Positions 1-3,059 of a stretch of DNA of 3,059 nt are shown in pieces. The notes under the pieces were generated by a model. It ran no database searches. It was not told the origin of the DNA and was given only the letters and a program-made list of their open reading frames with translations. Within the stretch, counting starts at the first letter, position 1. Every line of letters begins with the position of its first letter. A program made the position numbers and the translations under genes. The stretch is from a phage, in the sequence record PZ195122.1. One strand, written 5' to 3'.

Positions 1-58
1 GTTTTGCATAAGCGACTCATTCCTGCAGTCTTTTCACCATGCCGTTAGGTTTAGGTGA

Positions 59-77
59 CGGTATGTTCCACATACCG
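59..77 (+). promoter_or_regulatory. Stem-loop immediately 5' of, and sharing a base with, the maturation-gene Shine-Dalgarno
   Basis: Perfect 7-bp inverted repeat seen directly: cggtatg (59-65) and cataccg (71-77), with a 5-nt loop ttcca (66-70). G77 is the first base of the GGAGG Shine-Dalgarno. Confidence 0.4.
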
Positions 78-81
78 GAGG
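77..81 (+). promoter_or_regulatory. Shine-Dalgarno (GGAGG) for the maturation protein
   Basis: GGAGG at 77-81, 4 nt upstream of the ATG at 86-88. Confidence 0.65.
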
Positions 82-85
82 ATCT

Positions 86-1258
86 ATGTTTCCGAAGTCC
101 AATATAGACAGAAATTACAAGGTTAAACTTGTATCTTACGACAAGAAGGGTAGGTTGATTTCCGACGACTCTTTTGAGCAAGTCGAAAACTACCTCTTTC
201 AAAATCGTTCGAGCACGTATAAACCTGGTTATCTCCGTCGTGACTTTCGAAGACCAACTAACTTTTGGAATGGCTTTCGCTATTTTAATCAGCCAGTTGG
301 TACCTTCGTTCGGAAACTCTCTGATGGTGGGAGTCAAGTTGCCGACTATGGTATCGTGAACCCTAATAAGTTCACGGCCAACAGTCAGCACTTGGGGGAC
401 AACATGGTAATTTACCCTGGTCCCTTTTCTATAAACATTGATCAGCGTGCTTCTGTCGAAGTCCTCAATAAACTCTCACAATCCAACCTCAATATCGGGG
501 TTGCGATTGCTGAAGCTAAGATGACTGCTTCATTACTCGCTAAACAATCTATAGCTCTCATCAGAGCCTACACTGCCGCAAGGCGCGGTAATTGGCGAGA
601 GGTGTTTTCGCAACTCCTCATCTCCGAACACCGTTTCAGAGCTCCCGCTAGGGATCTCGGAGGTCGATGGCTCGAACTGCAGTACGGTTGGTTACCCCTC
701 ATGAGTGATATGAAAGCTGCATATGATTTGCTCACGCAAACCAAACTGCCCGCTTTCATGCCTCTAAGAGTTACCCGAACCGTTGGCGGTACACATAATT
801 ACAAAGTGCGTAACGTCGAATCTGCAGGGGATACTTGGTCCTACAGTGACCGCTTGTCGGTGAATTACCGAATATGGTATTTCATTTCCGATCCGCGACT
901 CGCATGGGCCAGTTCCCTCGGGCTTCTTAACCCTTTAGAAATTCTCTGGGAGAAGACGCCCTGGTCGTTCGTAGTTGACTGGTTCTTACCTGTCGGAAAT
1001 CTGATTGAAGCCATGAGTAATCCTCTTGGTCTCGATATCATATCCGGCACGAAGACTTGGCAACTCGAATCTAAACTTAATGCAACGCTTAAGGCATCGG
1101 GTTGGTCTGGAACTGCGAAGCTGTCTGCATACGCCAAGGCGTATGACAGATCAACTTTCTATTCCTTTCCCACTCCTTTACCTTATGTGAAATCCCCACT
1201 TAGTGGGCTTCACTTAGCGAATGCATTAGCCTTAATCAACCAACGCCTGAAAAGGTAA
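86..1258 (+). CDS. mat: Maturation (A / assembly) protein, 390 aa
   Basis: Complete 390-aa ORF with a strong Shine-Dalgarno, first gene in canonical levivirus order. Translation contains blocks I recognise from the MS2 A protein ([70 protein letters not shown]). Stop TAA at 1256-1258. Confidence 0.93.
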
Positions 1259-1262
1259 TTAC

Positions 1263-1266
1263 GGAG
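1263..1266 (+). promoter_or_regulatory. Shine-Dalgarno (GGAG) for the coat protein
   Basis: GGAG at 1263-1266, 8 nt upstream of the ATG at 1275. Confidence 0.6.
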
Positions 1267-1274
1267 TTAGCCAT

Positions 1275-1667
1275 ATGGCAACTTTACGCAGTTTCGTACT
1301 CGTCGATAATGGCGGTACGGGGAATGTTACTGTCGTTCCTGTTAGCAATGCCAACGGCGTCGCTGAGTGGCTTTCTAATAACTCACGTAGTCAAGCTTAT
1401 CGCGTGACTGCAAGTTATCGTGCGTCAGGCGCGGATAAGCGCAAGTACACCATCAAACTCGAGGTACCGAAAATCGTTACCCAAGTTGTAAATGGTGTCG
1501 AGCTGCCTATCTCCGCGTGGAAGGCTTATGCCTCCATCGACCTGACCATCCCGATCTTTGCTTCTACCGACGATGTGACTGTTATTTCCAAGTCACTTGC
1601 CGGCTTGTTCAAAGTCGGGAACCCTGTTGCCGAAGCTATCTCTTCACAGAGTGGCTTCTACGCTTAA
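1275..1667 (+). CDS. cp: Coat (capsid) protein, 130 aa including the initiator Met
   Basis: 130-aa ORF beginning MATLRSFVLVDNGGTGNVTVVP...NGVAEWLSNNSRSQAY...IPIFA...SGFYA, the signature levivirus coat fold sequence (compare MS2 FVLVDNGGTGDVTV / NGVAEWISSNSRSQAY / TIPIFA). From memory it is closest to the group II phage GA coat. Stop TAA at 1665-1667. Confidence 0.96.
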   Translation: MATLRSFVLVDNGGTGNVTVVPVSNANGVAEWLSNNSRSQAYRVTASYRASGADKRKYTIKLEVPKIVTQVVNGVELPISAWKAYASIDLTIPIFASTDDVTVISKSLAGLFKVGNPVAEAISSQSGFYA

Positions 1668-1858
1668 TGGGTCTGAAAGCAAAACATAAGGAAAACCTAT
1701 GTTCCGATTCACAGAGATCGAAAAGACTCTATGTATGGATCGCACTCGCGATTGTGCTATCCGATTTCACGTCTATCTTCAGTCATTGGATTTGGGGTCT
1801 TCTGATCCTCATTCTCCAGACTTTGATGGACTTGCCTACCTTCGTGATGAATGTCTAA
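1667..1858 (+). CDS. lys: Lysis protein (L-type single-gene lysis), 63 aa
   Basis: ATG at 1667-1669 overlaps the coat stop (TAATG). Translation MGLKAKHKENLCSDSQRSKRLYVWIALAIVLSDFTSIFSHWIWGLLILILQTLMDLPTFVMNV has a basic N-terminal part and a hydrophobic C-terminal transmembrane stretch with an L-S dipeptide, as in MS2 L (LYVLIFLAIFLSKFT). Lies in a different frame from the replicase, overlapping its 5' end. Stop TAA at 1856-1858. Confidence 0.85.
   Translation: MGLKAKHKENLCSDSQRSKRLYVWIALAIVLSDFTSIFSHWIWGLLILILQTLMDLPTFVMNV
1684..1702 (+). promoter_or_regulatory. Translational operator hairpin (coat-protein binding site) enclosing the replicase start codon
   Basis: ACAUA-A-GG-AAAA-CC-UAUGU: a 5-bp lower stem (1684-1688 with 1698-1702), unpaired A1689, a 2-bp upper stem (G1690-C1697, G1691-C1696) and a 4-nt loop AAAA (1692-1695). 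The replicase AUG (1699-1701) sits in the 3' arm. Same architecture as the MS2 operator ACAUGAGGAUUACCCAUGU. Confidence 0.78.
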
Positions 1859-3059
1859 CTAAACATCCCTCACTAGGAGACAGTAATTCGGAGGCACGCC
1901 GTAAGGAATTGGCATATGCCAAACTTATGGATAGTGATCAAAGATGCAAAATCCAAAACAGCAACGGATACGACTACTCTCATATCGAGAGCAGCGTACT
2001 GAACGGCATACTCAAGACCGCTCAGGCCCTAATTGCGAACTTGCTCAAGGGTTTTGAATCTCACTTCCTGAACGATTGTTCGTTCTCCAACGGAGCCTCA
2101 CAAGGGTTCAAGTTGCGGGATGCAGCGCCGTTTAAGAAGATCGCTGGGCAAGCAACCGTTACAGCTCCTGCCTATGACATTGCCGTAGCCGCCGTTAAAA
2201 CGTGCGCGCCGTGGTATGTTTATATGCAGGAAACGTATGGCGATGAAACCAAATGGTTCCGTCGGGTATACGGCAACGGTTTGTTTTCTGTTCCGAAGAA
2301 CAATAAAATAGATCGGGCTGCCTGTAAGGAGCCTGATATGAATATGTACCTTCAGAAAGGGGCGGGATCTTTTATAAGAAAACGCCTTCGCTCTGTCGGT
2401 ATAGATCTTAATGATCAAACGTGTAATCAAGAATTGGCCCGACTCGGCAGCATTGATGGTTCTCTCGCTACTATTGATCTCAGTAGCGCGAGTGATTCCA
2501 TCTCTGATCGCCTCGTCTGGGACCTACTTCCTCCACACGTTTATTCATACCTCGCCCGCATTCGGTCATCATTCACTATGATTGATGGCCGCCTGCATAA
2601 GTGGGGTCTATTTTCTACCATGGGAAACGGCTTCACATTCGAACTTGAGTCCATGATTTTCTGGGCTCTGAGTAAGAGTGTTATGCTGTCCATGGATGTT
2701 ACTGGCTCATTAGGCATCTACGGTGACGATATAATCGTCCCTGTACAGTGTGCCCCAACTCTCCTTAAGGTACTATCCGCTGTGAACTTTCTTCCTAATG
2801 AAAGGAAGACATTTACGACGGGTTACTTTCGTGAAAGTTGCGGTGCTCACTATTTTAAAGGTGCCGACATGAAACCTTTTTACTGCAAGCGGCCAATGGA
2901 AACCCTTCCCGATGTCATGTTGCTTTGCAACAGGATAAGGGGTTGGCAGACCGTTGGTGGAATGTCAGATCCGCGGCTCTATCCAATTTGGAAAGAGTTC
3001 GCTGATATGATTCCGCCGAAGTTTAAGGGTGGATGCAACCTAGATCGTGATNNNNNNCT
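1699..3059 (+). CDS. rep: RNA-dependent RNA polymerase (replicase beta subunit), 3'-truncated by the window end
   Basis: Open frame from the ATG at 1699 for 451 codons up to the N run, with no stop. Blocks shared with MS2 replicase include NGASQGFKLRDAAPFKK, VPKNNKIDRAACKEPDMNMYLQKG, IDLSSASDSISDRLVW, FSTMGNGFTFELESMIFW, YGDDII (YGDD at 2719-2730) and RESCGAHY. Not in the ORF track, probably because it has no in-window stop. Confidence 0.96.
   Translation, partial: MFRFTEIEKTLCMDRTRDCAIRFHVYLQSLDLGSSDPHSPDFDGLAYLRDECLTKHPSLGDSNSEARRKELAYAKLMDSDQRCKIQNSNGYDYSHIESSVLNGILKTAQALIANLLKGFESHFLNDCSFSNGASQGFKLRDAAPFKKIAGQATVTAPAYDIAVAAVKTCAPWYVYMQETYGDETKWFRRVYGNGLFSVPKNNKIDRAACKEPDMNMYLQKGAGSFIRKRLRSVGIDLNDQTCNQELARLGSIDGSLATIDLSSASDSISDRLVWDLLPPHVYSYLARIRSSFTMIDGRLHKWGLFSTMGNGFTFELESMIFWALSKSVMLSMDVTGSLGIYGDDIIVPVQCAPTLLKVLSAVNFLPNERKTFTTGYFRESCGAHYFKGADMKPFYCKRPMETLPDVMLLCNRIRGWQTVGGMSDPRLYPIWKEFADMIPPKFKGGCNLDRDXX
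3052..3057. other. Run of 6 ambiguous bases (N), a sequencing or assembly gap inside the replicase gene
   Basis: Literal nnnnnn at 3052-3057, followed by 2 nt before the window ends. Confidence 0.9.

Follow-up and report, generated by a model that had tools for sequence, protein, structure and literature searches.

Members of the genus Emesvirus (formerly Levivirus) have linear plus-strand RNA genomes that measure about 3.4-3.6 kb and end in structured termini (5' GGG..., 3' ...CCCA), and the species cut-off of the International Committee on Taxonomy of Viruses (ICTV) lies at about 80% identity of the RNA-dependent RNA polymerase (RdRp). The maturation protein of MS2 (NC_001417; genogroup I, Emesvirus zinderi) is present in one copy per virion and binds both the genomic RNA and the F pilus. 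For genogroup II, of which GA is the prototype, the genomes of GA, KU1, DL10, DL20 and T72 were compared by Friedman et al. 2012, with genome lengths of 3458-3486 nt and a within-group replicase similarity of 92-98% (PMC3499819). The subject of this analysis is the phage sequence record PZ195122.1, a stretch of 3,059 nucleotides (nt) that was analysed as a whole and is referred to here as the window. It is almost certainly a transcript, in DNA letters, that covers 88% of the plus-strand RNA genome of a coliphage from the GA subgroup of Emesvirus japonicum, the BZ13/GA species of levivirus genogroup II, and this phage is probably F-specific. Judged by its sequence, it fits the ranges published for this genogroup.

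A megablast search against 50,697 phage records aligned the window end to end with group II RNA coliphages. The matches that define its position were the following:

BZ13 strain DL10 (FJ483837): 92.9% nucleotide identity to the window
BZ13 strain DL20 (FJ483839): 92.7% nucleotide identity
GA (X03869 / NC_001426): 92.6% nucleotide identity, covering GA positions 54-3101 of 3466
KU1 and T72: about 84% nucleotide identity
MS2: 74-75% identity in patches, which cover about 13% of the window and lie within the replicase gene

The identity to GA, DL10 and DL20 amounted to 92.5-92.9% over 3016-3052 aligned nt, compared to 84% for KU1 and T72, and the only indel relative to GA is one extra U at window position 66. 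All matched records of GA, DL10, DL20, KU1, T72 and MS2 are classified as Fiersviridae, genus Emesvirus, and those of group II as Emesvirus japonicum. Over the 451 amino acids (aa) of replicase that could be compared, the identity is 95.8% to GA, 96.2% to DL10, 96.7% to DL20, 90% to KU1 and T72, and 55% to MS2, which places the window within this species. The original prediction, made from the letters of the window without database searches, had expected best matches to levivirus genomes along the whole length and a known family instead of a new system, and both expectations agree with the search (92.6-92.9% identity to the GA-like genomes). Its description as GA/MS2-like holds for the GA part only, since MS2 differs from the window at 42% of the nucleotides.

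The window extends from GA position 52-54 to about position 3109. Missing are about 51 nt on the 5' side and, on the 3' side, about 365 nt that include the 3' untranslated region (UTR) and the last 81 replicase codons. The window had also been called near-complete. That it is a copy of a levivirus genome was borne out, but with 88% of the genome, a truncated replicase gene, and the termini and 3' UTR missing, the term is too generous.

Four intact genes on the + strand occur in the levivirus order of maturation, coat, lysis and replicase, colinear with GA:

86..1258, + strand: maturation (A) protein gene, 390 aa; Pfam Phage_mat-A PF03863, 213 bits, E=9e-63
1275..1667, + strand: coat protein gene, 130 codons; Pfam Levi_coat PF01819, 129 bits, E=1e-37
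1667..1858, + strand: lysis (L) protein gene, 63 aa; Pfam Phage_MS2_lysis PF11125, 29.3 bits
1699..3051, running past the window end, + strand: replicase (RdRp beta subunit) gene; Pfam RNA_replicase_B PF03431, 700 bits, E=2e-210

The coordinates of these coding sequences (CDS) agree with those of the annotated relatives, including GA, DL10 and DL20, once a constant offset is applied. All four products score above the thresholds of their Pfam families, for each of which the curated cut-off is 25 bits. The non-coding part consists of an 85-nt 5' leader and a 16-nt spacer (1259-1274), together about 3.3% of the window. The gene order, the levivirus protein families and the near absence of non-coding space had all been read correctly from the letters.

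The matches to solved structures, obtained by comparison with sequences of the Protein Data Bank (PDB), point in the same direction. The maturation protein matched the MS2 maturation chain 5tc1_M (E=8e-76), the coat protein matched the GA capsid 1gav (E=7e-79) and also the MS2 coat protein, and the replicase matched Q-beta replicase structures (E=8e-67). Of the 532 replicase codons the first 451 are readable, up to position 3051, and the frame is open to the window end. The RNA_replicase_B match covers profile positions 14-442 of 540, and the catalytic YGDD motif is located at residues 341-344 (nt 2719-2730). The identity to the proteins of GA, DL10 and DL20 is 95.1-95.9% for maturation, 96.2-97.7% for coat, 96.8-98.4% for lysis and 95.8-96.7% for replicase, compared to 89-95% for the proteins of KU1 and T72 and 41-63% for those of MS2. 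The coat protein had been considered closest to that of GA, in line with identities of 96.9% to GA, 97.7% to DL10, 96.2% to DL20 and 62.6% to MS2. The maturation proteins of the window and of the F-specific phage GA share 95% identity, so the window is likely to derive from an F-specific phage as well.

GA and the window share their general layout. Gene order and lengths are equal (maturation 390, coat 130 and lysis 63 aa), the junction of coat and lysis genes, the operator hairpin and the lysis-control hairpin are the same, and the GA proteins are 95.4-96.9% identical to those of the window. The differences are a nucleotide divergence of about 7.4%, the extra U66 in a leader hairpin loop, the absence of the first 51 and last 365 nt of GA, and four coat substitutions (counting the initiator Met), namely T59 for A, I79 for G, S97 for A and V118 for I. 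The nearest records are DL10 and DL20, with identities of 97.7% and 96.2% for coat, 98.4% for lysis in both cases, and 96.2% and 96.7% for replicase. DL20 is the only one of the three to carry the U66 insertion of the window, and the DL10 record starts at the first base of the window.

The second genogroup II subgroup, represented by KU1 (AF227250) and T72 (FJ483838), belongs to the same species and has the same gene order and an identical operator. However, these two genomes carry an 18-nt insert after the coat stop codon and 2-3 extra nt before the operator, both of which are missing in the window. Because of the 18-nt insert, their lysis AUG is separated from the coat stop codon, and their lysis protein has 64 aa. 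In the window, the lysis AUG overlaps the coat stop codon in the sequence UAAUG (1665-1669), there is no KU1-type insert and the lysis protein has 63 aa, all of which are traits of the GA subgroup. MS2 shows the same genome plan and the same four Pfam families, but its lysis protein has 75 aa, with a gene start that lies 50 nt inside the coat gene, and its replicase has 545 aa compared to 532 aa for the GA type. Unlike in Qubevirus (Allolevivirus), where read-through of the coat gene yields the A1 protein, the coat protein of the window has no read-through extension, since the coat stop UAA (1665-1667) is followed two codons later by a second in-frame stop, UGA (1674-1676).

The lysis gene coincides in position with the annotated lysis CDS of GA, DL10 and DL20, and its product is 98.4% identical to the DL10 and DL20 proteins. 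The protein combines a basic N-terminus with a hydrophobic segment, and its residues 31-32 form an LS dipeptide. The final 160 nt of the gene overlap the replicase gene in a different frame. In this overlap (1699-1857), the synonymous divergence in the replicase frame is 0.01-0.06, compared to 0.28-0.36 downstream. Such suppression of synonymous change is the signature that would be expected of two real overlapping genes together with the operator. The ratio of non-synonymous to synonymous substitution rates (dN/dS) relative to GA, DL10 and DL20 is 0.06-0.07 for the maturation, 0.03-0.06 for the coat and 0.05-0.07 for the replicase gene, and relative to KU1 and T72 it is 0.05-0.11 for these three large genes. 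Third codon positions account for 72 of the 96 differences from GA counted in the maturation gene and for 76 of the 98 in the replicase gene. The four genes are under strong purifying selection.

The lysis frame is free of stop codons for 76 codons upstream of its AUG (1439-1666), which creates an open reading frame (ORF) of 113 aa starting with GTG (1517-1858). The same upstream frame is open for 11 codons in GA and DL10, for 31 in DL20 and for 17 in KU1 and T72. This opening is specific to the strain and probably due to chance. An N-terminally extended, MS2-like lysis protein starting at GUG 1517 has no support, as no Shine-Dalgarno (SD) sequence precedes this codon and none of the relatives keeps the upstream frame open.

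Indirect evidence for an RNA genome is provided by the absence of DNA-genome matches. A DNA-borne copy, be it a cDNA clone, a construct for expression or for virus-like particles (VLP), or an endogenous copy inserted into a bacterial replicon, would be compatible with a sequence given in DNA letters and with a left end at exactly the base where the DL10 record starts, as at a boundary set by a primer for reverse transcription PCR (RT-PCR). However, every base of the window aligns to GA-like genomes, and no vector or host flank is present within it. A megablast search of the window against 5,426 complete E. coli genomes and 72,556 plasmids (PLSDB) gave no match, and no exact 51-mer match was found among the GTDB species genomes. 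Moreover, all four genes have the wild-type organization and are under purifying selection, and sequencing of cDNA is the normal route for RNA phages, so that the biology would be unchanged. A DNA-borne origin is therefore highly improbable. Since the best matches were levivirus genomes, the four proteins are levivirus proteins and no DNA-genome context was found, the view that this is neither a cellular nor a DNA-phage locus was upheld. Nothing was seen that contradicts the assignment to the GA subgroup of Emesvirus japonicum.

The first base of the window, which is also the first base of the DL10 record (GTTTTGCA...), corresponds to GA position 52. This suggests that the left end is a sequencing boundary derived from an RT-PCR primer site common to both records and not a biological end. 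Close to the right end, the window contains a short run of undetermined bases:

3052..3057, no strand: six Ns within the replicase gene, at a site that reads ACTTAC (Thr-Tyr codons) in each of the five group II relatives

The last two bases (CT), which follow this run, are back in register with the relatives; masking or an unresolved base call are possible causes of the run.

For the position of the window within the GA subgroup, pairwise divergence and private sites were counted over positions 40-3051. The window differs by 7.2-7.4% from DL10, GA and DL20, which are 5.3-5.7% apart from each other, and by 15-16% from KU1 and T72. It has 104 private sites, compared to about 50 each in DL10, GA and DL20, and at 44 of these 104 its state is the one seen in KU1 or T72. 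Because the window is more divergent and has more private sites than GA, DL10 and DL20 among themselves, it belongs to a sister or basal lineage and is none of these strains. These alignments place it in the GA subgroup, in a slightly basal position. The further step, that it represents a GA-subgroup lineage outside the five fully sequenced genogroup II genomes and basal to GA, DL10 and DL20, and thus a new strain of a known species, is given an even chance. The traits of this lineage would be the divergence of 7.2-7.4%, the 104 private sites, the coat residues I79, S97 and V118, and the lysis frame that is open for 76 codons upstream.

A search for related loci in IMG/VR and the metagenomes of the Joint Genome Institute (JGI), guided by the maturation protein, revealed no closer relative than GA, DL10 and DL20. 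Apart from GA, it yielded KU1/T72-like fragments as well as distant leviviruses with 26-31% aa identity. Two KU1/T72-type fragments from IMG/VR (L008 and L009) show 86-88% nucleotide identity to the window. Two further KU1/T72-type fragments come from metagenomes (L015, OGVH01004950, and L016, OGVK01005982) and show 89-93% aa identity, the first of them being a fragment of the maturation gene with 89% aa identity. In L008, L009 and L016, the operator is preceded by the sequence ...GTCAGAAAGCAATTA, which is typical of T72.

Two coat residues differ among the GA-like records themselves. Residue 59 (codon 1449-1451, counting Met) is Thr in the window, DL10, DL20 and MS2 and Ala in the GA reference, and residue 79 (codon 1509-1511, counting Met) is Ile in the window, compared to Gly in the GA reference and Val in both DL10 and DL20. 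At either residue, the outlier seems to be the GA reference.

Recombination among leviviruses has been reported in environmental strains (PMC3499819), and an alternative reading of the window is a mosaic genome, for instance of the GA subgroup with the KU1 subgroup or with group I, as described for the JS strains. The nearest relative does shift slightly along the window, with DL20 at 301-700, GA at 801-1200 and DL10 at 2500-2900, and 8 of the 28 informative sites that group the window with DL10 fall within 2511-2679. However, sites shared with GA and DL20 interleave with the DL10 sites in this interval, which marks it as a variable region and not as a breakpoint. The identity to GA, DL10 and DL20 is 0.83-0.99 in every 200-nt segment and exceeds that to KU1 and T72 throughout from position 101, with a near-tie in the first segment only (DL20 0.830, KU1 0.819), and the identity to MS2 never exceeds 0.73 in any segment. 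The 2:2 informative sites group the window 28 times with DL10, 21 times with GA and 24 times with DL20, which is a star-like pattern. From the uniform sliding identity profile and the interleaved 2:2 informative sites, with no formal breakpoint test run, no recombination signal was seen, and a mosaic origin has very little probability compared to a single GA-subgroup lineage. Independently of the window, positions 1-78 of the DL20 record (FJ483839) align to the MS2 5' end, apparently near-identically in the part shown, and the record is GA-like from about position 79. This 5' end could stem from a group I/II recombinant or from a primer or laboratory artefact in that record.

Besides the genes, RNA elements known or proposed for GA and MS2 were located in the window:

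1263..1284, + strand: coat initiation region, with the SD sequence GGAG at 1263-1266 and a hairpin at 1264-1284 that holds the AUG (1275) in its loop and 3' arm
1370..1375, + strand: candidate 5' partner GCUUUC of a Min Jou-type long-range pairing, from a restricted duplex search
1633..1657, + strand: candidate lysis-control hairpin upstream of the lysis start, to which the GA feature 1683-1707 maps ("potential" in the GA annotation)
1675..1680, + strand: candidate 3' partner GAAAGC, just 5' of the operator hairpin and invariant in the group II sequences examined
1683..1703, + strand: translational operator hairpin, the predicted coat-protein binding site (AACAUA-A-GG-AAAA-CC-UAUGUU)

In the operator, a bulged A (A1689) separates a lower stem of 6 bp from an upper stem of 2 bp, which is capped by the loop AAAA (1692-1695). 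The replicase AUG (1699-1701) is located in its 3' arm and the SD sequence AGGA (1689-1692) inside the hairpin. It folds as drawn with -4.2 kcal/mol (z=-2.4), and its sequence is identical in all six group II genomes, with a potential coat-protein binding site annotated there in GA. The architecture with a bulged A, a 4-nt loop and the replicase AUG in the 3' arm is the same as in MS2, whose loop is AUUA in place of AAAA, and one pair is compensatory relative to MS2, from G-C to A-U with a change on both sides. The candidate lysis-control hairpin folds with -8.5 kcal/mol (z=-2.7), and 81% of the alignment cells are paired across seven phages with little covariation. For the coat-start hairpin, a local fold gave -8.8 kcal/mol (z=-0.96), which is not significant alone, and we infer its regulatory role.

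In MS2, the equivalent of the Min Jou-type pairing ties the translation of the replicase to that of the coat protein. An unrestricted duplex search for the partner sites gave inconsistent locations and missed the known MS2 pairing, and was discarded. The restricted search recovered the known MS2 pairing UGAAUGG/CCAUUCA at the homologous coat position as a positive control, and it found GCUUUC/GAAAGC in the window, DL10, DL20, KU1 and T72. The proposed pairing rests on this positional homology, and not on covariation.

Several results weigh against the interpretation given here, some of them concerning the RNA elements and others the identity of the window. In GA itself, a different coat site (coat 112-127) outscored GCUUUC/GAAAGC in the restricted search, and both partners are invariant within group II, so that covariation is absent. 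The Rfam model of the MS2 operator (RF02359) matched at 1682-1702 with 18.1 bits, below its gathering score of 40, and this match involves model positions 16-36 only. Across the regulatory hairpins, 2 of 18 pairs are compensatory, a value that was equalled in 48 of 500 shuffles, so the covariation is thin. Both genome termini, and with them the terminal replicase-recognition structures, lie outside the window. An exact 51-mer of the window was absent from IMG/VR, the JGI metagenomes and the GTDB species genomes, and an exact-sequence lookup found neither the maturation nor the coat protein sequence on record.

The missing exact protein matches, the truncation at both ends and the six Ns could also be explained by a defective or decaying genome, for example an environmental fragment that is not viable or a chimera assembled from several genogroup II strains. 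In such a case, however, neither ORFs that are all intact with lengths as in GA, nor dN/dS values of 0.03-0.07, nor intact regulatory hairpins would be expected. The private sites speak against it as well, since 44 of the 104 being in the KU1 or T72 state corresponds to a real basal lineage and not to sequencing noise. A defective genome is thus considered very unlikely, and a functional GA-subgroup genome remains the preferred reading.

Combining the established biology of MS2 and GA with the conserved elements of the window, a working scheme of regulation can be proposed. Translation would proceed from the + strand only, and the coat gene would offer the sole freely accessible start. Ribosomes moving along the coat gene may open the candidate pairing between 1370-1375 and 1675-1680 and in this way allow initiation at the replicase gene. 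As coat dimers build up, they would bind the operator at 1683-1703, which buries the SD sequence and AUG of the replicase gene, and switch off replicase synthesis. The 63-aa lysis protein would be a low-level product of ribosomes that, after termination at the coat UAA, reinitiate at the overlapping AUG. The maturation gene would be translated only from nascent 5' leaders that are still unfolded, and its product would link the RNA with the F pilus. The replicase subunit would act with the host factors EF-Tu, EF-Ts and S1.

The leader, on which the proposed control of the maturation gene depends, is present in part:

1..85, + strand: partial 5' untranslated leader, aligned to GA 52-135

The SD sequence GGAGG of the maturation gene is located at 77-81, where the annotated ribosome binding site (RBS) of GA (127-131) maps. 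Two leader hairpins, at about 34-58 and at 59-77, are both kept in the consensus fold of four group II leaders. Compared to GA, DL10, KU1 and T72, the second (CGGUAUG-UUCCA-CAUACCG) contains the extra loop base U66, which is also present in DL20. The pair that closes the loop of this hairpin is A-U in DL10 and KU1 and G-C in the window and GA, with both sides changed. A possible pairing of the SD sequence with an upstream complement in the leader would comprise about 4 bp by eye and is unused in the minimum free energy (MFE) fold (z=-1.4), the first 51 nt of the genome being outside the window.

Four ORFs on the minus strand were rejected as antisense frames that are open by chance within conserved coding sequence. 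The ORF at 17-391 (124 aa) and those at 568-759 (63 aa) and 865-1137 (90 aa) are interrupted by stop codons among GA, DL10 and DL20. All four GA-like sequences retain the ORF at 2098-2430 (110 aa), which is broken in KU1, T72 and MS2.

The window is a strain of a known and intensively studied species, and no new biology is indicated. Its features should be read as those of an RNA phage, with translation from the + strand, RNA hairpins and translational coupling, and minus-strand ORFs as well as promoter-like and terminator-like sites are meaningless in it. To genogroup II, for which the annotated collection that was searched contains five distinct genomes only, it adds one slightly basal strain of the GA subgroup, which is of modest use when primers and probes for genogroup II are designed for faecal source tracking.

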